From assembly GCA_963826825.1 (NCBI GenBank), contig CAWGYV010000016.1:414771-478770 (forward strand): DNA of 64,000 bases. Reading direction: 5' to 3'. A model generated the notes under the pieces. The model was not told where the DNA came from. It was given only the letters and a program-made list of their open reading frames with translations, and ran no database searches. Numbering within the stretch: position 1 is the stretch's first letter; each line of letters begins with the position of its first letter. The stretch is from an uncultured Acidimicrobiia bacterium (GTDB lineage Bacteria; Actinomycetota; Acidimicrobiia; Spongiisociales; DATADW01). Below are positions 4,265 to 55,734 of the stretch, one piece after another. Made by a program: the position numbers and the translations under genes.

Positions 4265-5738
4265 GACTCCCGAAAGGAGAGTGCTTCGGCGATGTGCGCC
4301 TCGGTGACGGCATCGCTGGCGGACAGGTCGGCCAGAGTGCGCGCCACCCGCCGCACCCGGTCGTAACCGCGTCCGCTGAGGGCGCTCCTCTCCACTGCTC
4401 GCTCGAGCAGACCGACACCGGCCGATTCCCAGGGGAGGGCGTCGAGGCGGCGCCGATCGAGCGACCGGTTGAGCGACCCTCTGTGCGGCTTGCCGCCGAC
4501 GTGCGGCGATCACCCTGCTTCTGACATCGGCGCTGCTCTCCCCTGCCGGGCCGGAGAGCGCCGACGAGCCGGGGCGGCTGACCGCAACCCTGAGGTCGAA
4601 CCTGTCGAGCAGCGGCCCCGAGAGCCGTCTCCGGTAGCGCTCCACACCACTCGGCCGGCAGCGGCACGCCACCGCACGATCACCTTCGAACCCACAGGGG
4701 CAGGGATTGGTGGCGGCGACGAGTTGGACATTGGCCGGGAACGTGACCGACCTTCCCGAGCGGGCGACCGTCACCCAGCCCTCCTCGACCGGCTGGCGGA
4801 GGGCATCGAGCAGGTTGGTCGGGAACTCACCCAACTCGTCGAGGAACAACAACCCATGGTGGGCGAGCGAGATCTCTCCGGGGGTGACGATGCCGCTCCC
4901 CCCTCCCACCAGCGCCGCAACCGTTGCGGTGTGGTGAGGGGCGCGGAACGGCGGGTACCGGCGTGGAGCGTCGCTCCTCCCCGCGGCCGACCAAACCTGG
5001 GCCACCTCGACCGCTGCATCGGGCGTCAACTCGGGGACCAGCCCAGGCATACACCGTGCGAGGAGCGTCTTCCCCGAACCGGGAGGTCCCCACATCAGAA
5101 GGTGGTGCCCCCCCGCCGCCGCCACCTCCAGGGCCCGGCGCGCCAGTGGCCTGACCCCTCACTACCGCCAGGTCGGGTGGGTCGGGTGGCTGGTCAGACG
5201 TCGGCACCATCGGTGGGGGCCGCCGATGAAGGCGCACCCAACGCCACGGCGACCGCTTCGGCCAAGGAGGTCACCGCCCTGGTGTCGGCACCCACCACCA
5301 GCGCGCCCTCCGCCATCAGCGCCGGTGGGAGCAGACAGGGCCGGCCGAGACCGGGCGGCCACCACCGCCGCCGCCATCCCTCCCCTGGCCGGGCGGACGG
5401 TCCCGTCGAGTGCCAGCTCTCCCAGCGCAACCACGTCGGCCAACCCCGGGGGTGCCCCGCCCGATGCCGCGATCACCCCAAGCGCGATGGGCAGGTCATA
5501 TGCCGAACCCGCCTTCGGCAGATCGGCCGGGGCGAGGTTGACCGTGACCCTGCGGTCCGGCATTCGGAACCCGGACGACTGGAGAGCCGCCTGCACCCGG
5601 TCTTTCGCCTCGCGGACCGCCGTATCGGGCAGCCCTACGAGACGAAGTGATGGGAGCTGACCGCCGACGTGGACCTCCACCCGGACCGGCCGTGGTTCCA
5701 CGCCGACCAATGGTCGCTGAGGTGACTGCGGCGAACAT
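4258..5738 (-). CDS. comM: YifB/ComM-family Mg-chelatase-like AAA+ ATPase (about 5 frame breaks at ~5710, 5345, 5215, 5150, 4480)
   Basis: Pieces lie in five frames. They read MFAAVTSAT / LVGVEPRPVRVEVHVGGQLPSLRLVGLPDTAVREAKDRV / CLLPPALMAEGALVVG / PDLAVVRGQ / ALEVAAAGGHHLLMWGPPGSGKTLLA...LFLDELGEF / RGYDRVRRVARTLADLSASDAVTEAHIAEALSFRESW-stop at 4258. Confidence 0.85.
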
Positions 5739-17328: not shown

Positions 17329-18481
17329 TCAGTCGGTGTAGAAGCGGGCGATCTCCTCACCGATCGGTCCAACTGCCGCCTCGGTGAGGTGGCCCAGGTC
17401 GTCTCTGTAGTCAGCGCAGCTACGCACCTCGGGCGAGGCGCCCTTTTCGACGCCAACCGTGAGTTCGATCGCCTGGTCGATGATCGGATGGTTGACCGAG
17501 GCCCTGACACTCTCCCTGCGGTCCCCCGGACATAGCTGCTCGTCGGGACCGCCGACGATTGGCTGAAGCACGATTGCCGCGCCGGGGTACTTGACCCTGG
17601 CGGTGGCTACCGCCGACGTGATGTCCTCGACCCACTGCGCCACCGGACGCTCGGCACCCGTCACCGTAAGCAACAGCCGGCTCGGGGTCCCGTCCGAGCA
17701 CCCGATACGACCTGATTGCTCCAACCGACGAAACCCGGATCGGCCCATTTCTCGATCGTTGCTCCCGACTCCCAGAGGAGGTCCCACCCGGCGTCGCCTG
17801 CCACCGGCTCGAAGCCACCGCCGGTGAACCACTGCTCGGTCTGACTGAACCCGACCACCCTGGTGCAGGAGAAGGGGCCTGTTGCCGACAAGCCGAGCGC
17901 CCGGGCCAGGAAGCTCGCCATCTGGTCGCGCCTCACCGCCTGTTCCGGGCAGAAACGGATCCCGGACTCGTCGCACCCGGCGGTGATTGCTGCTGCGGCG
18001 ATGGAGTTGATGGCCTCCTCGTGAACGCTCTCCTCGTCGTCCACGAAGATGTCGGCGCTCGAAGCGGGGAATGCAAAGCCCCGCACCAAGAGACTTGCCA
18101 TCTGCGCCCTACTGAGCGCCTCAGACGGGCAGAAGCGCGTTCCGGCCGGGTTGCAGCCGATGGTGATGCCCGCCTGGGCAATGGCGTTGATCGCCTCCTC
18201 GTGAACGCTCTCCTCGTCGTCACCAAAAGCATCGGTCCCGGATATGGGGAGGTCAAGCGCTCGCTGCAGGAAGCTCGCCATCTGCCCCCTGGTCACCGCG
18301 CGGCCGGGGCAATAGAGGTTCGTGCTGCAGCCAACGGTGATGCCTTCGGCGGCGATCGCCTCGATGGCCGCCTCGTGGACATTGCCATCGTCGTCATCAA
18401 AGGTCCCCGCTGCTGTCGCCGGCGCGGCGGGGATCAACCAAACCGTAACCGCCAGGATGGCGGCGCCGGCCAGGCGGATCC

Positions 18482-18497
<16 letters not shown>
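17329..18497 (-). CDS. Secreted protein with 3 SLH repeats plus an SGNH-like C-terminal domain (frame break ~17705)
   Basis: A signal peptide (MRQPVRIRLAGAAILAVTVWLIPAAPATAAG) is followed by three copies of F.DD....H..AI.A.A..GIT.GC......FCP...V.R.QMASFL.RA. The C-terminal domain (VVGFSQTEQW...DDLGHLTEAA) continues in ORF 17329..17976. Confidence 0.8.
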
Positions 18498-20259
<1,762 letters not shown>

Positions 20260-20278
<19 letters not shown>

Positions 20279-20904
20279 TCGAGCGCCCGGACCAGGAATG
20301 AGGCCATCTGTCCCCTGGTCACCGGCTCATTTGGGCAAAAGCTGGTGCCGCCGCATCCCTGGGTGATCCCCGCTTCGGCCAGCGCGTTGATCTCCGCCTG
20401 GAACGTGCTGGTGCCGTCATCGGTGAAACGGTCGGGGCCGGGGGGGAGGTCCAGAGTTCGGGCGAGGAAGGCTGCCATCTGCCCGCGGGTCACCGAACTG
20501 TCGGGGCAGTAGGAGGATCCGCTGCCGCACCCGGTGGTGATCCCCACCGATGCGATCGAGTTGATCGAATCCTCGTGGGTGTTCCCCGAGTCGTCCCCGA
20601 AGTAGTCGAACTCGGCGTCGGGGGTGACGAACGATCGGGCGAGGAACGACGCCATCTGTGCCCTGGTCACCGGCTCCTCCGGGCAGAACAGTGTCCCTGC
20701 GTCGTTGCAACCCTTGGTGATCCCCCATTGGGCGAGGGCGACGATCGAGTCGGCGTGCACCGATCCTGCGATGTCGACGAACGGCTGGGGCTGCTGGGCG
20801 AGGGCCGGTGAGGGCGCCATCGTCATCGAGGTGACTGCGGACAGCGTCAGCCAGAGCACCCAACAACGCGGCCGCCTGGCTAGGCCCCTTCGGGATGTGG
20901 TCAC
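20260..20904 (-). CDS. Secreted protein consisting of 3 SLH repeats
   Basis: Intact, 214 aa, with a signal peptide ending ALAQQ. The three repeats include FVDIAGSVHADSIVALAQWGITKGCNDAGTLFCPEEPVTRAQMASFLARSF. The stop overlaps the beta-helix gene start by 19 nt. Confidence 0.85.
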
Positions 20905-20992
20905 AACTGACCCCCGATCCGCCGGCGCCTACTACCCCGCCGACAAGAGGCGGGAGTCAAACAACCTGAGACGCCGAGGTCAAATGGGACTT

Positions 20993-21021
20993 GAGTACTT
21001 AGTACTAAGTACTAAGTACTC
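20993..21021. promoter_or_regulatory. 29-bp AT-rich perfect palindrome made of four AGTACT hexamers at 7-bp spacing
   Basis: The sequence is gAGTACTtAGTACTaAGTACTaAGTACTc. The 14-bp arms are exact reverse complements around the central A at 21007. It lies 10 nt downstream of the methyltransferase stop and ~90-115 nt upstream of the SLH operon start. Confidence 0.8.
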
Positions 21022-21030
21022 AGACGAATC

Positions 21031-22257
21031 TCACACCGATACCACCTCAGGGTCGAGACCCATCTCTGTGAGCTGATTCGTGATCTCCTCTTGGTAGATC
21101 TGGTTCATCAGTACCACCAGGTCGGGCTTGAGCTCGATGAGACTCTCGGGGGCGAGCACCTCGTGGCCGGTCCCGGGGAGGAACATCCCCTGCTTGTAGG
21201 GGTTGATGTCTACCACTGCCGACACGCTGTCGCCGAGGCCGATTGTGGTGAGGAAGGCGACCGCCTTGGACCCGCCACCCCAGATGGCGACACGCTCGCC
21301 GCGTTCGGCCGAACCCTCTAGCCGTTGGCGCCAGCTCTCGATGTGGCGGTTGGCGCCGGAGGCGAAGGCGAGCACCATCTCGCCGACTTCGTCGGGTGAC
21401 TCCTCGACCGGCAGCGGATCGACTGATCCGCCGATGACCGAGTCGGCCAGCAGGTACTGGTCACCGAACCCGAGTGCGATATCGGTGACGGTGAACCCCG
21501 CTTCCCTGAGGGCTCGCCCCAGCGAGCCGGGTGTGTAGTACGAGCAGTGCTCGTAGTAGATGTCCCAGAAGGCGAACTCCCTCAAGACCCGTCCCGTGTC
21601 GGGGACCTCGGTGAACATCGCTGCTCCGTCGGTTGCCTCCACGGACCGTCGCAGCAGCCTGAAGAAGTCGCCGACCGGGGCGATGTGCTCCATGGTGTGG
21701 CGGGTGATGACCAGGTCGCCGGTCAGCGGGGTGTGCTCCTCACCGTAGAAAGCGCGGATCAGCTCAACCGAGCCATCGCCCGCTTCCCCAACCGGCGGCC
21801 TCCCGAATCCTGGGTCGATCCCAATGCCCCGGCCGATGCCGAGCTCGGCCAGGAGCATCAAGAAGTCCCCCTTGCCGCTCCCCACCTCGAGCACGGTCCG
21901 CCCTTCGAGGCCGTACCTCTCGACGAGATCGCCGGCGAGTCGGCGGGCGAAGTTGGTGAACAGCGGCGAGAAGGCCTGCGACTCCTCGGTGGGCTGTCCG
22001 TAGTCCACCTTGTCGGGCTCGAAGCAGATGTTGGTGATGAACCCGCAACGGGGGCACAGCCCGAGCACAAGATCGCCGATGGGGTAGGCAGACGCCGACG
22101 GTTGGTCGGGCAGCAACACACAGCTTTGTGTCGGGATCTCCCCCGCGGCGAAGAAGGAGAGCAGCCCGGTGGCGCCGCAACTCGGGCAGGTAGCTGAGGC
22201 ACCGAGATCGAGTAGGTCGTCGCCCACCAGAGGGCGCAGGTCGGTCGGGCCGATCAC
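21031..22257 (-). CDS. Class I SAM-dependent methyltransferase with N-terminal Zn-ribbon and C-methyltransferase C-terminal domain (NDP-hexose C-methyltransferase-like)
   Basis: The GTG start overlaps the upstream stop (GTGA). It carries CPSCGATG...CPRCGF, the SAM motif VLEVGSGKGDFL and the C-terminal domain VAIWGGGSKAVAFL. In the ORF track it is fused to the next gene as one 829-aa ORF. Confidence 0.8.
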   Translation of the reverse strand: MIGPTDLRPLVGDDLLDLGASATCPSCGATGLLSFFAAGEIPTQSCVLLPDQPSASAYPIGDLVLGLCPRCGFITNICFEPDKVDYGQPTEESQAFSPLFTNFARRLAGDLVERYGLEGRTVLEVGSGKGDFLMLLAELGIGRGIGIDPGFGRPPVGEAGDGSVELIRAFYGEEHTPLTGDLVITRHTMEHIAPVGDFFRLLRRSVEATDGAAMFTEVPDTGRVLREFAFWDIYYEHCSYYTPGSLGRALREAGFTVTDIALGFGDQYLLADSVIGGSVDPLPVEESPDEVGEMVLAFASGANRHIESWRQRLEGSAERGERVAIWGGGSKAVAFLTTIGLGDSVSAVVDINPYKQGMFLPGTGHEVLAPESLIELKPDLVVLMNQIYQEEITNQLTEMGLDPEVVSV

Positions 22258-23520
22258 AGGATGGTGGGTTGCGGCACAGGGACGATGAAACGCCCGCCCC
22301 TTGCGGCGTACTCCGCTTGCTGGCGCATGATCTCGTCCCTGAAGTTCCAGGCGAGTATCAGCAGATAGTCGGGCGGGTCGTCGAGAAGCCGCTCCGGGGA
22401 AAAGATGGGCAGCCGCACTCCTGGCATATGCAGTCCGTGTTTGTGGTCGTTCCGATCCACAACGTAATTCGAGGTACTCCGCCGCCCCGGTGTAGTTGAG
22501 AAGCGTGGCGCCCTTGGCCGCGGCGCCGTAGGCAGCGATTTTTGCCCCCTCGGAGGTGAGCCTGGAGAGGAGGTCGATCAGGTCCTGGCGGACCTGTTCG
22601 ACCCGATCGGAGAAGGCGGCGTAGTACGCAGCCTCTGTGAGCCCGATCCTTCGCTCCTCCTCGAGGTACTCCTCCACCGACGGCTCGGCTTCGGCCACCG
22701 CCGAGAAGGTCACACGGAGCGACCCACCGTGGATGGGGAAGTGCCTCACCCGGATCAAATCGAGTCCGTGTCTGCCAAAGAGAGCGGCGAGCGCGGTGAC
22801 GGAGAAAATGCAGTGGTGCTCGTGATAGATGGTGTCGAACTCGCAGTTATCCACCATGTCGCGCACGTAGGGGACCTCGATCTCGACCCTCCCCTCGGGG
22901 GCGAGGATCGTCGCGATGCCGGCGACGAACCGGTTCTGGTCGGGGACATGGGCGAGGACGTTGTTGCCCAGGACCACATCCGCCCTCACTCCGTCCGCCA
23001 GCAATCGATGCGCCAACTCGGGCGTGAAGAAGTCCCTGATCGTGGGGATGCCCCTCTGCTCGGCAGCGGCTGCAGGACCGGGCGCCGGGTCGATCCCGAG
23101 GACGGGCACCCCGGCCTTGAGGAACCATTGGAGCAGGTAGCCGTCATTGCTGGCCAGCTCCACCACCAGGTTGTGGTCGCCAAGGCCGAGCTCGTCGACC
23201 AATCCTTCGGCATGGGTCCGGGAGTGCTCCAGCACCTGATCGGAGAAGGAGGAAAAGTAGGGATAGTCCTCGTCGAAAAGCACGGTGGGTGGCACTGTCT
23301 CCTTGATCTGGACGAGCGAGCACCGCGGGCAAAACACCACGGTGAGCGGATAGTGGTGCTCGTCGGCGGCGGGGAGACCCGGTGCCACCAGCTCGTCGGC
23401 CAGCGGGACCATCCCGAGATCCAGCACGGGGACCAGATCGGTCGCCCCGCAGCTGCGGCACCCGGCTATTACCTCATGCACAGGTACATCATGCACGGGC
23501 ACATCATGCACGGGCATCAC
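22254..23520 (-). CDS. Class I SAM-dependent methyltransferase with Zn-ribbon, paralog of the previous gene (frame break ~22465)
   Basis: It carries CRSCGATD...CPRCSLVQ, VVELASNDGYLL and AAYGAAAKGATLLNY. The C-terminus (VVDRNDHKHGLHMPGVRLPIFSPERL...FIVPVPQPTIL) lies in ORF 22254..22460. Confidence 0.8.
23471..23515 (-). repeat. 3 x 15-bp tandem repeat encoding (VHDVP)-type pentapeptides at the methyltransferase 5' end
   Basis: The units acctcatgcacaggt / acatcatgcacgggc / acatcatgcacgggc give the protein N-terminus MMPVHDVPVHDVPVHEV. Confidence 0.9.
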
Positions 23521-27226: not shown

Positions 27227-27259
27227 CTGTACGGACTACCCCTCAGCCGGCGGGCGTTA

Positions 27260-28145
27260 TCAGCCGGATGACCAGGGCTTGTCGGGGGCACCGTCTTCGC
27301 TCCGCCGACGCGTAGCGCCCAGCGCCACCGCGCCAGCCACCACTAGCGCCGCTCCCAGGCTCAGCCAACCACCACCGGCCCCGGGCCCGGTAAAGGGCAG
27401 GGTCTGCGCCACGGTGGTGGCGGAAATCGAGGTGCTGGTTATCTGAATCGAGGTGGTCGGCGTCGTTGGGTCGGTTGTCGAGGTGGTGGTCCGTCGGCGT
27501 GGTCTCCGGTGTCGTAGTCGTGGTCTCCGATGTTGTGGTCGTGGTCTCCGATGTTGTGGTCGTGGCCTCCGATGTTGTAGTCGTGGCCTCCGATGTCGTA
27601 GTCGTGGCCTCCGATGTTGTAGTCGTGGTCTGTTGAGCGGTGCAGGTGGCGGTCACCGAGTAGTCCACAGAGGTGGCAACAATCCCATTGGCGTCGGGAA
27701 CCATCACGTTGTACAGCTCGATGGTTGCGCCAAGCACCAGCGTGGCGTCCTGGAGGACGGTCTCGACAACATTGGGTAGCGACTCGGTCTGGAGAACGTC
27801 GGTCTCGTTGACGCCGGTGGCGATCACCCCGAAGTTGTTGAGATGGACGCTCTGGCCATTGGCGGCCGCCACGCTGAACGTGCACGTCCTCCCAATCAGG
27901 TCCCCATAGCCGTTGGCCGCCAGGTCGAAGGTGGTGAGCAGCCGCCTTACCCCCTCTTGGTCGGTCTGGTCCACCGGACGTGGGACGGAGAAATCCGCCC
28001 CGGTGAAGCTGAAGCTGACCGTCTGAGCCATGGCCGGTACCGCCAAAACGGCAGGCACCGCCACCAGCGCGGCCACGAACACTGCTCCGAGACGCCTTTT
28101 CAGCCCGGACAGGTTGAAAGAACCCCGGCTGCGTGATGCACGCAC
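27260..28145 (-). CDS. LPXTG-type cell-wall-anchored surface protein, copy A (frame break ~27480)
   Basis: The signal peptide is LGAVFVAALVAVPAVLAVPAMAQ. The N-domain reads FSFTGADFSVPRPVDQTDQEGVRR, followed by (TTTTSEx)6. After a frame shift the C-terminus reads ...TLPFTGPGAGGGWLSLGAALVVAGAVALGATRRRSEDGAPDKPWSSG-stop at 27260. Confidence 0.8.
27499..27624 (-). repeat. 6 x 21-bp tandem repeat encoding TTTTSE(A/T) heptads
   Basis: Six units of gtggtctccgatgttgtggtc and close variants are head to tail, in frame within LPXTG-A. Confidence 0.95.
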
Positions 28146-35934: not shown

Positions 35935-35940
35935 GGCTGG

Positions 35941-35989
35941 GACGGTAGACGGCGGACGGCGGACGGCGGACGGCGGACGGCAGACGGCG
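35941..35989. repeat. 7 x 7-bp tandem repeat GACGG(C/T)(G/A) in a divergent intergenic region
   Basis: The units are gacggta gacggcg gacggcg gacggcg gacggcg gacggca gacggcg. The array lies 7 nt from the enoyl-CoA hydratase ATG (minus strand) and 34-82 nt upstream of the CMD-family TTG start (plus strand). Confidence 0.95.
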
Positions 35990-36022
35990 GCCAGAATCGG
36001 ACAATACGGACAAGGAGGGTCT

Positions 36023-42965: not shown

Positions 42966-44209
42966 AGGGAGGGTAGAGCCGGCTTCGCGATGGCGGCGTA
43001 CGCGGAGGTCCCCGGACACCGATTTGAAGTTGAGCCGGGCCGAGCGCTCGACCGGCTGCTCGGCGGGTGCGGGATCGGGGAGAACCACCCGGCCCGACAT
43101 CGTGTCGGCTTCGAAACCCAACTCGGTGCCGGTCGGGATCCCCACGGTGAAGTCGCCGCTCACCGTCTTGACCGATAGACCGGCGCCGGTGAACCGCGAC
43201 ACGCGGACATTTCCGCTCGCAGTCTTGATCTCGCTGTTGCCGTCGGCCTCGTCGACCACCACGTCGCCCGACGCGGTCTTGCAGCCAACCGCTCCCGATG
43301 CGGCCGACTCGCAGCTCGCCGGATGCAGACGAGAAACGGAGCTCGCCACCGACCTCCTCGACCCTCACGTCACCCGAAGCCGTCTTCACCGCGGCATCGC
43401 CGATGACCGACCCGAGCCGAACATCACCCGAAGCGGTATCCGCCTGGAGCGATTCCAGTCGAAGCTCCACCACCAGGTCGGCCGAGGCGAGCGACGACTC
43501 CAAGCCGCGACCCCGTCCGGGGCTGTGATCGACACCCGGTGGGCGCCGCGACTGACCCGTTATGCCACGACCCGGTGAACTCCTGTCGCACGACGACCGA
43601 AGAGCCGGTCTGACTGACGACGAACTGCTCGGGGTGGGGGCCGTCGATCGTTACTTCGACCCATTCCTCGGCGCCCTCGACGATCTTGACCTCGCCAGAG
43701 CGGAGCGAGATCTCGATCCGTGGCGGCGCCTCGACCGTGAACTGTTCGTGCCTCACAGCCGGATCGTCCCCTTCATGCTCCTCCCTGATCCGGTCTGGCT
43801 GCTCGACTTCACGTTGCTGGGCCGCCAGGGTCCGCACGACGAAGGAGTTGACCGAGTCGCCAAGCTGCTGGGCAGCGGACTCCACGGCCAGCTTCAGGTT
43901 GGCGGGGACGCGCAGCGTGATCCGGGCGTCGAGGTCATCGGGGTCGACAACCTCATCGGTGACGGCGTGCCGGATACGGAGTACCGGCTCCCCTTCCTCG
44001 AGGACCACGTCCACCTCTCTGCCGGGAAGCTGGGCGGCCACCTCGTGGGCGGCTTGCTGGGCCAACTCGTAGGCCACCTGTCGGAACGCCGGCCGGAGGG
44101 CGGTGAGCAGGGCCTGCGAAGCCTGCTCGACCGATGGGTCGCTCCCGGTCAGGGCGAGATGGTCGGCCACTGCCCCCTCGATCTGGGTGAGTGCACCCGC
44201 TGTGTCCAT
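42831..44209 (-). CDS. Ribbon-helix-helix (Arc/CopG-like) N-domain fused to DUF4097 beta-strand-repeat domain (frame breaks ~43500 and ~43340; stop not resolved)
   Basis: ARITLRVPANLKLAVESAAQQLGDSVNSFVVRTLA has an RHH pattern. Repeated TASGDVRV / SASGELRV / TASGNVRV / TVSGDFTV / SVSGDLRV units follow. The frame runs without a stop into the ACAD N-terminus. Confidence 0.65.
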
Positions 44210-44413: not shown

Positions 44414-44443
44414 TGACATCACTATGATGTCATAGTGATGTCA
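44414..44443. promoter_or_regulatory. Operator-like nested inverted repeats of the octamer TGACATCA in an AT-rich spacer
   Basis: The sequence is TGACATCA-cta-TGATGTCA-tag-TGATGTCA. The outer 11-mers TGACATCACTA and TAGTGATGTCA are exact reverse complements. It lies ~205-235 nt upstream of the RHH-DUF4097 start, in the region downstream of the M15 peptidase gene stop. Confidence 0.7.
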
Positions 44444-44465
44444 TCTTGTCAAGAGGATTTTGTTG

Positions 44466-45305
44466 TCACATGTCGAGGAGCGCCCTCCACGTATTCGGGC
44501 CGACAACACCGTCCACATCGATGGCGGCGGCGCCTTGGATCGAACGCACCGCTGCGTCTGTGTTCTTACCAAAGGAACCGTCGATTTCGAGCGGTGATCT
44601 GACGCTGAGCAGAGCCTGGAGCGATCGCACCGCGGTCCCCTTGTCCCCCTTTCTCAGGTATGGCAACTGGACCTCGACCGAGGCCTTCTTGGTCGATGCG
44701 ATTTCCGACACCATGGTGCTGTCGCTTTTGACAGCGCGTTGCCCGGCGATTCCGTGTCGCAGCTCGTCGGGATGACAGTCGATCTGAAAGTGCATCAGAT
44801 CGGCGTCTGGCCGCCAGTGGCCGCCCCACTTCCACACCCTCACCCCCCGTGTGGTGACGATGGCGTCCACCGCGCCGATCTGATCGGGGGTGAACCTGGT
44901 CTGGTGCCAGCCCGACCAGGGCACGTAGGGATTGGCCGCCGGGTCGAGGTCGATGGCGATCCCATAGCTGTGCAGGCTGGGCAGATCGCTGCCGGCGATG
45001 TTGCGCACGTTGAACGCCCATGAGGACTGCGGGGTGTAACCGCCGGCCCGTAGCGCCTGCTCGAGGGCGGCATAGGCCGGCGCGGCCAGGGTCGGGACAC
45101 CTCCCACTCCCCTACCGAAGAACTTGACGTCGGCGAACTCGGATTTACCTGCGTACCAGGGAGCCCACCAGGAGCGGAGCGTCGATGTCGGCGCCCGGTG
45201 CTCATCCTCCAACCACTTCTTGACCTCCGGATCGGAGCGCTCGGCGCCATCCGGGTCCATCTGGCCCGCCAGGTCGGCGGGCGGTTCCAAGGGAACATCA
45301 GCCAC
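44466..45305 (-). CDS. M15-family (VanY/D-Ala-D-Ala carboxypeptidase-like) peptidase with C-terminal peptidoglycan-binding domain
   Basis: Intact, 279 aa. It carries SLHSYGIAIDLD and ADLMHF (Zn ligands). The PG_binding_1 pattern is LRKGDKGTAVRSLQALL...IDGSFGKNTDAAVRSIQ...GVVGPNTWRAL. Confidence 0.8.
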   Translation of the reverse strand: MADVPLEPPADLAGQMDPDGAERSDPEVKKWLEDEHRAPTSTLRSWWAPWYAGKSEFADVKFFGRGVGGVPTLAAPAYAALEQALRAGGYTPQSSWAFNVRNIAGSDLPSLHSYGIAIDLDPAANPYVPWSGWHQTRFTPDQIGAVDAIVTTRGVRVWKWGGHWRPDADLMHFQIDCHPDELRHGIAGQRAVKSDSTMVSEIASTKKASVEVQLPYLRKGDKGTAVRSLQALLSVRSPLEIDGSFGKNTDAAVRSIQGAAAIDVDGVVGPNTWRALLDM

Positions 45306-52906: not shown

Positions 52907-55642
52907 ATGACGGGTCCGCCGGCGGTCGACCGCGACGAGGCGCTGCGAGCCGACATCCGCCGCCTCGGCACCCAGCTTGGCGAGGCGCTCGCCCGCCAAC
53001 ACGGCACCGAACTGCTCGACCTGGTCGAGCACGTGCGAGCGCTCTGCAAATCGATACGACACGACCACGACCCAGAAGCGACCAAGCAACTCGATGCGAC
53101 GCTTGAGCTCGCTCGATCTCGGGACCGTCATCCAACTGGTACGAGCCTTCACCGCCTACTTCTATCTGGCCAACGTCGCCGAGCAGACCCATCGGGTTGG
53201 TGAGATGGTCGACGAGGACCGCCGCTTCGAAGCCACGGTTGATCGCATCATCGAAGCCGGACTCGACAAGGACCTGATCGCGTCGGTCGTGTCCAGGCTC
53301 GAGCTGCGCCCCGTCTTCACCGCCCACCCGACCGAGGCCGCCCGCCCGACCACGCTCAACAAGCTGCGCACAGTGGCCGACCTGCTCGACGACCGGCTCG
53401 ACCCACGGGCAACCGAAGCCGACCGGGTGCGGATCGACCGCAGGGTCGCCGAGGTGATCGACCAGATCTGGGAAACCGACGAGCTACGCATGGACAAGCC
53501 CGAGCCGGTGGACGAGGCCCGCTCGGCGATCTTCTACTTCGACCGGTTGGAAAGCGACGTCTTTCCTGATCTGGGCGAGGAGTTGGCGCTCCAGTTGGAA
53601 CGGCTCGATCCCAACCGGGACCGCACCCAGACACCGATCCGATTCGGGACCTGGGTTGGTGGCGACCGCGACGGCAATCCCTCGGTCACCGCAGATGTCA
53701 CCCGGCGGGTTCTCGAACTGCAGCACGACCATGGTCTTACGGCGGCTGATCGAGGCGGTCGAGCGGCTCGCCGAGGATCTGTCGATCTCCGACAGGACGT
53801 GGAATGTCTCCGCCGAGTTGATGGCATCCCTGGAGCGCGACCGCGAGATGCTCCCTCTCACCTGGCAGCGTTTCCACGGACTCAACGCCCACGAGCCCTA
53901 CCGGCTAAAGCTCGCCTACATCCACAGCCGGCTGGGCGCCACCAGAACGCGAATCCGCGAGGGCGCCCGGCATCAGCCCGGGGTCGACTATGCGGGGCCA
54001 TCCGAGCTGGCCGCCGAGCTCGAGTTGTTGCGCTCATCGCTGTGCGAGAACGCCGGTCTGCTCATCGCAGAGGGTTCGGTGATGCGGCTGATCAGGGTGG
54101 TGGCCACGTTCGGGTTCCACCTCGCCACGATGGATGTCCGCGAGCACGCCGACCGGATCCACGATGTCGTCGCTCAACTCCTCGACAGAGTCGGTATCGC
54201 GTATGCGGACCGCAGCTCCGAGGAGCGTCTCGAGTTGCTGGCCAGGGAGCTCGCCGAGGGCAGACCCTTGGCAACCGCGGCTGCCCGCCTTGGTGAAGGT
54301 GCCGAGGAAACCATGGCCACTTTCGCAGGCATCGCCTCCGCCCTCGACCGGTATGGGCCCGCGGTCATCGAGTCGTACATCGTCTCGATGACGAGGGGAG
54401 CCGACGACATCCTCGCCGCGGCGGTGCTGGCTCGTGAGGCCGGGACTGATCGACCTCCACGACGGTCTTGCCCGGGTGGGGTTCGTGCCGCTCTTCGAGA
54501 CCATCGACGAGTTGAGACGCTGCGGCGAGATCCTCGACCAGTTGCTCTCCGACCTCTCCTACCGCCAGGTGGTCTCGCTGCGGGGCGATGTCCAGGAGGT
54601 GATGCTGGGGTATTCCGACTCGAACAAGCAGGGCGGGATAACCACCAGCCAGTGGGAGATCTACAAGGCGCAGCGACAGCTGCGGAACACGGCGCGCCAC
54701 CACGGGGTCACGCTCCGGCTATTCCACGGACGCGGCGGCACCATCGGCCGGGGTGGAGGCCCGACCCACCAGGCGATCCTCGCCCAGCCATTCGGCACAA
54801 TCGACGGGCCGCTCAAGGTGACCGAGCAGGGCGAGGTCATCTCCGACAAGTACGGGCTCCCCGGGCTGGCGGCGCGCAACCTCGAGCTGGCAGCGGGCTC
54901 GGTGCTCGAGGCGTCGCTGCTCCACCGGTCGTCGCGCCAGCCCAAGGAGGTGCTCGACCGCTGGACCGAGGCGATGGAGGTGGTGTCCGATGCGGCGTAC
55001 TCGTCATACCGCACCCTGGTTGACGACCCCGGGATGGTGCGGTTCTTCCTCTCCGCCACCCCGGTCGAGGAGTTGGCATCGATGAACATCGGGTCGCGTC
55101 CCTCGCGACGTCCCGGCAGCGGAACGGGGCTCGACGACTTGCGCGCCATACCTTGGGTCTTCGGATGGACCCAGTCACGCATGATCATCCCCGGCTGGTA
55201 CGGGGTGGGCACCGGTCTCGTCGAGGCACGCAAACGCGGTTACGGGGAAGTGCTCGACGAGATGCACGAACAGTGGTGGTTCCTCCAAACCTTCGTCTCG
55301 AACGTCGAGATGACGCTGACCAAGGCCGACCTGGGGATCGCCCGACGGTACGTGGAGGAACTGGTCGACCCCGAAGTGCAACAGCTACTCGACATGATCC
55401 TCGAGGAGCACGACACGACCATGGGCGAGGTCCTCCGGCTCACCGACCGGCCCGGGCTGCTCGCCGGCAACCCATTGCTCCGCCGCACCCTCGAGGTGCG
55501 CGACGTCTACCTCGACCCGCTCAACTACCTCCAGATCGCCCTCCTGGCGAGAAGCAGGGCGGGCGAGACCGATCCACTTCTGCAACGGGCCCTCCTGCTC
55601 ACTGTGAACGGAATCGCCGCTGGGATGCGCAACACCGGCTGA
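52907..55642 (+). CDS. ppc: Phosphoenolpyruvate carboxylase (frame breaks ~53120, ~53740, ~54440)
   Basis: [47 protein letters not shown] and the C-terminal [11 protein letters not shown] are spread over four frames. Confidence 0.93.
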
Positions 55643-55666
55643 CGTTGAAGAGCCGCTATCTCGCTG

Positions 55667-55696
55667 CCGTCCGACTTCCGCCGTCCGTCTTCCGTC
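55667..55696. repeat. Cluster of four CCGTC (= GACGG) motifs between ppc and upp, related to the 35941 heptamer array
   Basis: CCGTC starts at 55667, 55681, 55685 and 55692 (spacings 14, 4 and 7). The reverse complement reads gacagacggaagacggacggcggaagtcggacggc. Confidence 0.6.
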
Positions 55697-55734
55697 TGTC
55701 TCGGTAGCCTGCCGCAGCCGAGGAGTCGAGGCCT

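Follow-up and report, generated by a model that had tools for sequence, protein, structure and literature searches.

We propose that the perfect palindrome between a sugar-methyltransferase gene and an operon for S-layer-homology (SLH) proteins in an uncultured Acidimicrobiia bacterium is probably a heptanucleotide simple sequence repeat (SSR), (AGTACTN)4, which is driven by slippage, owes its palindromy to its core and to chance complementarity of its outer spacers, and has no sequence-specific regulatory role. A slippage-prone heptanucleotide repeat is the simplest reading of the element, and one left out of the preliminary description of this DNA, which had entertained a multi-dimer operator, a hairpin terminator or both. 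For the window, by which we mean the whole stretch of 64,000 nucleotides that was analysed, the result is mostly corrective, and the palindrome is best not annotated as an operator. The new points lie in a family of repeats with a palindromic core that extends across soil phyla and some viruses, in the preference of this family for sites just past stop codons, and in its quick turnover at a fixed locus.

Under this proposal the array would gain and lose units by slipped-strand mispairing in replication or repair. With an AGTACT core that is its own reverse complement, every such array would be quasi-palindromic, and the copy in the window would be perfectly palindromic only since its outer spacers are complementary (T...A) and the flanks extend the match. 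Where constraint on the intergenic DNA would be weakest, just past the stop codon and ahead of the promoter/leader block, the array may be tolerated and might even confer a slight benefit, and any effect on expression would come from an RNA or DNA hairpin, or from AT-rich and easily melted DNA, rather than from a dedicated binding protein.

The array and its genomic setting

Positions 20993-21021 of the window read gAGTACTtAGTACTaAGTACTaAGTACTc, letter for letter as first described, and hold a tandem array of four AGTACT hexamers at a 7-bp period (20994..21020, no strand assigned), which was delimited by hexamer count and by TRF (period 7, 3.9 copies, 95% matches). The spacer bases are T, A and A on the plus strand, or T, T and A in the sense of the flanking genes. 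The exact arms around one central base that had been noted earlier are confirmed and are slightly longer than given: a repeat finder places a perfect 31-bp palindrome at 20992..21022 (no strand assigned), with 15-nt arms at 20992-21006 and 21008-21022 and its centre at A21007. This is the longest perfect palindrome of the 64-kb window, the runner-up having arms of 9 nt. The claim that such an element is very unlikely to arise by chance also holds, in that AGTACT occurs seven times in the window as against 1.9 expected, a count reached by none of 100 shuffles; four of the seven copies are located in the array. No second AGTACT array was found within the window even with three mismatches allowed, which bears out the earlier remark that the copy is single. 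The site had further been called the most AT-rich spot, and this is true of the overlapping segment 20989-21017, whose G+C fraction of 0.31 is tied for the minimum of the window, but not of the 29-mer 20993-21021 as given, which stands at 0.34 with seven other segments lower.

The array is non-coding, with stop codons in all six frames, and lies between the stop codon at 21031 and the start codon at 20904 of two genes that are both on the minus strand. The upstream gene (21031..23520, minus strand) encodes an 829-aa fused NDP-sugar-type C-methyltransferase with the Pfam Methyltransf_13 zinc domain, Methyltransf_14 and Methyltransf_23, and is the final gene of a run that includes a nucleotidyltransferase and an epimerase/dehydratase; its stop codon (21031-21033) is 9 nt from the array. 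The downstream gene (20260..20904, minus strand) encodes a 214-aa secreted protein with S-layer-homology repeats (Pfam SLH), begins with a GTG at 20904, 88 nt from position 20993, and is followed by the genes for a beta-helix protein (18482-20278) and a second SLH protein (17661-18497). These Pfam matches agree with the labels “sugar methyltransferase” and “SLH” that had been assigned by eye, and the placement of the array between two operons stands, with the distances refined from 10 to 9 nt on the side of the stop and from 90-115 to 88 nt on the side of the SLH start. Other neighbouring genes code for a family-2 glycosyltransferase, a sulfotransferase and further enzymes. No DNA-binding domain was found in a Pfam scan of 18 neighbouring window proteins, and exact-protein look-ups for three window proteins returned no record. 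The SLH gene at 20260-20904 is itself repetitive: a segment of about 170-180 nt occurs in it three times (D1-D3), in correspondence with the three SLH-type repeats of the protein.

The array lies immediately upstream of a non-coding block of 83 nt (20905..20987, minus strand), which runs from CCATTTGACC to the SLH start codon and is near-invariant in an alignment of five sequences, though the accompanying methyltransferases are just 83-94% identical. Within the block are a GC hairpin at 20936-20954 and two TTGAC motifs with a spacing of 23 nt. The block occurs once in the window and probably serves the SLH operon as promoter, as structured leader or as both. A consensus scan of 20500-21500 found no sigma-70-type promoter. 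When the array and the block were searched against Rfam 15 nothing scored above the gathering threshold; the sole match, to livK, reached 27.6 bits where 65 are required, and falls in the block and outside the array. Two metagenome scans for the block gave no matches. The truly conserved and presumably regulatory sequence at this locus is this 83-nt block, next to the array.

Turnover of the array at orthologous loci

We compared the spacer that separates the methyltransferase stop from the SLH start in ten versions, the window included. The orthologs were gathered by a methyltransferase search, by a pattern scan for the conserved block, and from contigs encoding members of the 90% cluster of the SLH protein; their hosts are uncultured soil Actinomycetota, in records labelled “Actinomycetes” or “Acidimicrobiia”. 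In the direction of the genes, the window has the TGA stop, gattcgtctg, the four units AGTACTT, AGTACTT, AGTACTA and AGTACTC, then aagtc and the start of the conserved block. The version with a methyltransferase 94% identical to that of the window (L121) has three units, AGTACTT, AGTACTC and AGTACTT, followed by aacccacatccct, with T and C as spacers and without an overall palindrome. Two units are seen in L204 (AGTACTT, AGTACTG), where they are followed by the GC hairpin GGAGGCGCtctGCGCCTCC, and in L259 (GGTACTG, AGTACTG), where one of them is degenerate and a GC hairpin like that of L204 comes next. A single allele shared by three samples (L260, L261 and L262) has about three units with G spacers (GGTACTG, AGTACTG, AGTACTG, AG), after which come stretches of TCCGTCC/TTCCGTC-type and ...ACCCA... 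heptamers, and L263 has four units in an interrupted array (AGTACTT, AGTACCT, acttc, AGTACTC, AGTACTG), then (TTCCGAC/TTCCGTC)n and (NAACCCA)n. The two remaining versions have no such array: in L201 there are zero AGTACT units, and only the 9 nt gaaatggca separate the TGA stop from the conserved block beginning CCATTTGACC, and in L122 the place of the array is taken by (GGGTTCT)4, a 1.9-kb insertion coding for an HNH-type protein, and then (CAACCCA)3.

The conservation check that the preliminary description had called for in orthologous intergenic regions hence came out negative, the locus holding 0, 2, about 3, 3 or 4 units, or another heptamer, with spacer bases that vary. Because the adjoining 83-nt block is near-invariant in the five aligned sequences, this variation is specific to the array. 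Among the orthologous arrays the overall palindrome is a property of the window copy only. Within populations, the record of array length consists of assembled contigs of related strains, those from public sequencing runs being of low depth, comprising one longer variant, on a soil-metagenome contig from a related strain (X3) where the array continues ...GAGTACCAAGTACTCA, and the three samples that share one allele. The stretch from the methyltransferase stop to the array (21021..21030, minus strand) differs in each of the ten orthologs compared; on the minus strand it ends in ...CTG, as it does in six of the eight versions that keep an array, and by its letters this end resembles what a further unit would leave behind on decay.

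The element accordingly has the hallmarks of a heptanucleotide SSR, namely a 7-nt unit repeated head to tail in at least three copies, a non-coding site, and a copy number that differs between close relatives at a locus where the adjacent 83-nt block is conserved. Against this reading, at least two AGTACT units are found at the same spot in eight of the ten orthologs, across 6-17% protein divergence, a persistence longer than a short neutral repeat might show.

Further heptamers populate the same spacer in other strains. In L260-L263 (at about 900-1040) the zone from the stop codon to the conserved block is a composite of AGTACTN, TTCCGTC/TTCCGAC and NAACCCA units; the latter two families have been lost from the window, and L121 retains one AACCCAC. 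The insertion in L122 (8468-10300) lies between the methyltransferase gene and the SLH promoter block, its Pfam HNH match being weak (20.8 bits against a cut-off of 21.4), and the (GGGTTCT)4 and (CAACCCA)3 that flank it are near reverse complements of one another.

AGTACTN arrays in other bacteria and in viruses

When one genome per species was searched for runs of at least three AGTACTN units, at least 120 loci were uncovered, often several per genome, whose hosts among the matches listed include Acidobacteriota, Planctomycetota, Gemmatimonadota, Actinomycetota, Bacteroidota, Chloroflexota, Saccharibacteria and others; array size among these matches ranges from 3 to 10 units. Cultured carriers among them are Maribacter spongiicola DSM 25233 and Nafulsella turpanensis ZLM-10. 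In viral contigs 23 stretches with at least three AGTACTN units were found, as against 9, 13 and 9 for three composition-matched control hexamers with palindromic cores, so that in these contigs AGTACT occurs about twice as often as the controls and is recurrent, not uniquely favoured. A single spacer base, which makes the array a plain direct repeat, characterizes 116 of the 153 distinct arrays listed, in many phyla. Many arrays shade into heptamers that are one mutation off, such as ACTCAGC, ACTCAGA and GGTACTN, and some adjoin unrelated heptamers.

Selection for palindromy of the whole array was considered and rejected, as 12 of the 37 mixed-spacer arrays among those listed are palindromic where 9.3 are expected (P = 0.2), and among the 153 arrays listed the window copy is the only full palindrome with four or more units. 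A mobile composite element likewise gained no support, since arrays at other loci of related genomes are not accompanied by the same neighbouring heptamers.

In an unbiased sample of 1.06 Mb, period 7 is the commonest among perfect repeats with long units, with six arrays as against one or two for each of the periods 5, 6, 8 and 9, and this excess matches the over-representation of heptamers reported in PMC4692102. Within one lineage a few heptamer families recur at several loci, which pure local slippage fails to explain and which therefore counts against the SSR reading.

Two sets of loci show further features of these arrays. In a MAG of the Acidimicrobiaceae (L037, at about 4640-4700) two unrelated arrays are adjacent, (ACGTATC)6 directly after a stop codon and directly before (AGTACTT)4. 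Near-identical IMG/VR contigs from three samples (L208/L212/L214 and L216/L220/L226) each carry three AGTACTN arrays, of 8, 7 and 3 units, with equal copy numbers in all samples, so that AGTACTN arrays are not hypervariable everywhere.

Placement relative to genes and a possible role at 3' ends

We then examined where these arrays sit relative to genes, using a crude gene caller based on third-position G+C that was checked on the window. With gene calls that are approximate, and start calls that are the longest possible and so work against a stop-proximal bias, the arrays listed that fall between co-directional genes have a median distance of 24 nt to the upstream stop and 67 nt to the downstream start, 36 of them being closer to the stop and 17 closer to the start (p = 0.013). 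Arrays are enriched in convergent intergenic regions (26% as against 15.5% expected) and depleted in divergent ones (11.5% as against 29%), a bias in orientation with a chi-square p of 2e-4 relative to array-free intergenic DNA of the same loci. At the Actinomycetota loci, nine of ten arrays lie 3-16 nt past the stop codon of a Pfam-confirmed gene, and the genes that precede them include those for a biotin carrier, YebC, DapB, CheA, an acyl-CoA dehydrogenase and a zincin peptidase. Because these genes are unrelated, there is no AGTACTN regulon, and the earlier proposal to chart AGTACT arrays against genes leads only to arrays that follow unrelated housekeeping genes in related genomes.

This non-random placement is a further point against a purely slippage-driven repeat. 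Two readings fit it: selection excludes the arrays from promoter and leader regions, so that they build up just past stop codons, or the arrays serve at 3' ends, and their post-stop position at nine of the ten Actinomycetota loci could reflect a 3'-end function rather than mere tolerance. The idea that the arrays supply backup stop codons was discarded, as spacers that create a stop on the sense strand (G, T, A) make up 76% as against 75% expected; on that strand G exceeds C and T exceeds A among the spacers, which matches the ordinary strand composition skew. The host range of AGTACTN and its bias towards gene ends are not described in the literature that was found, and the literature search turned up no paper on AGTACT arrays.

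An alternative to the SSR reading, which we regard as unlikely, is that the array is a selected 3'-end element, whose hairpin terminates or pauses transcription or blocks 3' exonucleases and thereby insulates the glycan-modification operon from the SLH operon, with a copy number that is free to vary while a hairpin can form. Minus-strand RNA of the array is predicted to fold into a hairpin of 14 bp with a 3-nt loop at -19.5 kcal/mol (shuffles, -6.6 +/- 2.2; z = -6), and into a smaller one at -16.7 kcal/mol in L121. The position 9 nt past the methyltransferase stop, the stop-proximal and convergent-enriched placement of arrays across phyla, the self-complementary core and the retention of two or more units in most orthologs all speak for such an element. 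The stem, however, is A+U-rich, with 34% G+C, and is followed by CAAGUCCCAUUU, without a U-tract; a consensus scan of 20500-21500 found no intrinsic terminator. The hairpin is also dispensable, with L201 lacking the array and the heptamers of L122 failing to fold (-6 kcal/mol, no better than shuffles). A separate G+C-rich hairpin comes after the array in L204 and L259 and before it in L029, which suggests that the array itself is not the terminator. Moreover, the identical spacers of three quarters of the arrays listed (116/153) permit only A+U-rich stems of 5-6 bp, and in metatranscriptome contigs from related strains coverage extends to part of the SLH gene but never to the array. The hairpin terminator of the preliminary description thus survives in part: the RNA hairpin is strong and its site is post-stop, but the U-tract and the G+C-rich stem are missing, and the hairpin is not found in all relatives. 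Intrinsic terminators, and the hairpin-only (“I-shaped”) terminators proposed for Actinobacteria, share with the array a stem-loop a few nucleotides past the stop and an enrichment between convergent genes; the array differs from them in its A+U-rich stem, in having neither a U-tract nor a match to the consensus, and in being dispensable in two orthologs.

A broader version of this idea, to which we give still less credence, is that AGTACTN arrays form a cross-phylum class of post-stop elements, kept or spread by a conserved factor and acting as 3'-end punctuation in soil bacteria that lack U-tract terminators. The factor could be a heptad-reading DNA- or RNA-binding protein or a nuclease, and the class could perhaps take in the other recurrent heptamer families. 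Such punctuation could act in termination, in RNA stabilisation or in operon insulation, and the copy in the window could then be one working instance between two operons. If the bias in position does reflect function, it would bear on the marking of transcript ends in high-G+C bacteria.

Improbable readings: a tuning repeat or an operator

It is very improbable, in our view, that the SLH operon is tuned by the array as a contingency repeat, one in which changes by 7-bp units alter the strength or phasing of a promoter and produce heritable but reversible surface variation. The genes on either side specify enzymes for surface glycans and SLH proteins, which is the classic setting for phase variation. 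Nine nucleotides separate the end of the array from the TTGACC with which the conserved block opens, a place suited to an UP element or an activator site, and the array is the most A+T-rich DNA of the window (tied for lowest G+C). Its copy number varies among relatives, and others carry more heptamer arrays in the same upstream zone. There is also a documented precedent in the (ATCTTTC)n repeat upstream of the hmw1A and hmw2A adhesin genes of Haemophilus influenzae, a tract of at least 11 units in a mapped 5'-UTR, which is transcribed, forms part of an RNA hairpin, varies in copy number between strains, and has a demonstrated effect on expression through RNase III (PMC12721329). Both are 7-bp tandem units of variable copy number beside surface-protein genes. 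The array, however, has four units, few for slippage at a high rate when compared with the 11 or more of the hmw tracts (PMC12721329), and lies upstream of the conserved leader block rather than in a mapped 5'-UTR. The long tract and high switching rate expected of phase variation are accordingly not seen, and the occurrence of one allele in all three of the samples L260-L262 argues that switching is not fast. A consensus scan did not recognise the promoter that the repeat would tune, there is nothing conserved upstream to phase, as the methyltransferase gene ends there, and arrays elsewhere go with gene ends and not with starts.

The multi-dimer operator, in which each AGTACT, or each 9-bp TACTNAGTA, would bind one repressor dimer with cooperation between neighbours, can be dismissed almost entirely. 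The model is drawn by analogy with MetJ on tandem metboxes and the omega protein of plasmid pSM19035 on heptads, both ribbon-helix-helix repressors whose neighbouring dimers bind cooperatively; the metboxes are 8-bp repeats of AGACGTCT, and the omega heptads are 7 bp long. The array shares with these operators its contiguous short units, each fit for one dimer, its period in the range of 7 or 8 bp and, with those of MetJ, the palindromy of its units; tandem palindromic units at a fixed short period are typical of such repressors, and the array borders directly on the conserved block ahead of the SLH gene. The MetJ and omega operators, however, show conservation along with their regulons, and each is served by a cognate repressor, whereas conservation is lacking in the array, no repressor gene lies near it, and at other loci such arrays come after genes that are unrelated. 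The observation that the preliminary description had itself named as fatal to an operator, an array that is absent where the spacer is otherwise conserved, is provided by L201, and by L122 with its replacement, in both of which the promoter block is conserved. The variable number of units and spacer bases, the lack of a DNA-binding protein gene among the 18 neighbours scanned and of a second site in 64 kb, the position of arrays in related genomes past the stops of unrelated housekeeping genes, and the failure of the literature search to find any operator built of AGTACT arrays point the same way. We therefore reject the operator on the orthologs and on the absence of a regulator gene among the neighbours scanned or of a regulon.

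Comparison with known heptameric repeats

Returning to the heptanucleotide SSR, we note that heptameric repeats are over-represented in bacteria according to Mrazek and co-workers (2007), as cited in PMC4692102, where polymerase slippage is also proposed as their origin. Examples of the class are GGGAATC in Xanthomonas, GGGGA(T/C)T in Nostoc and the STRR heptamers of heterocystous cyanobacteria. The array has in common with them a period of 7, an intergenic location, a length of a few to tens of units and an occurrence at several loci per genome. It differs in its palindromic hexamer core, in being A+T-rich within a genome of 65-70% G+C, and in that no G-quadruplex is possible. On this basis the array is a new case of the bacterial heptameric SSR class, real and non-random but ordinary.

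A parallel in distribution is the TAACTGA repeat of marine Beggiatoaceae, cyanobacteria and some Bacteroidetes (MacGregor 2015; PMC4679880), which occurs as 2-6 repeats at many intergenic sites in distant phyla with no known mechanism of spreading (PMC4679880). The two sequences are related, as can be seen when TAACTGA is rotated to ACTGATA and AGTACTG to ACTGAGT. Most TAACTGA sets precede a start codon by a few nucleotides and have been proposed to act in translation (PMC4679880), whereas most AGTACTN arrays follow a stop codon by a few nucleotides. AGTACTN offers testable handles on the origin and the role of heptameric repeats in bacteria.

Other repeats in the window

The same genome carries a second, G+C-rich heptamer array at 35940-35990 of the window, where about seven copies of GGACGGC occupy the intergenic DNA of a divergent gene pair; a likely start codon, with AAGGAGG in front of it, lies about 30 nt downstream of them. 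A degenerate array at 55666-55697 (GCCGTCC, GACTTCC, GCCGTCC, GTCTTCC, GTCTGTC) lies 24 nt past the stop of the gene at 54434-55642; its unit is the reverse complement of that at 35940 and is similar to the TTCCGTC arrays that precede the SLH gene in L260-L263. At 44419-44447 there is an A+T-rich 20-bp palindrome, TCACTATGA-tg-TCATAGTGA, followed by repeated TGTCAT; it is situated about 20 nt past the stop of the gene at 44466-45305 (minus strand) and about 210 nt upstream of that at 43424-44209, and could be an operator or a terminator. Lastly, a 21-nt unit is repeated 6.4 times (92% matches) at 27498-27631, within the open reading frame 27243-28145 (minus strand), which has a weak mucin-like Pfam match and probably encodes a repetitive surface protein.
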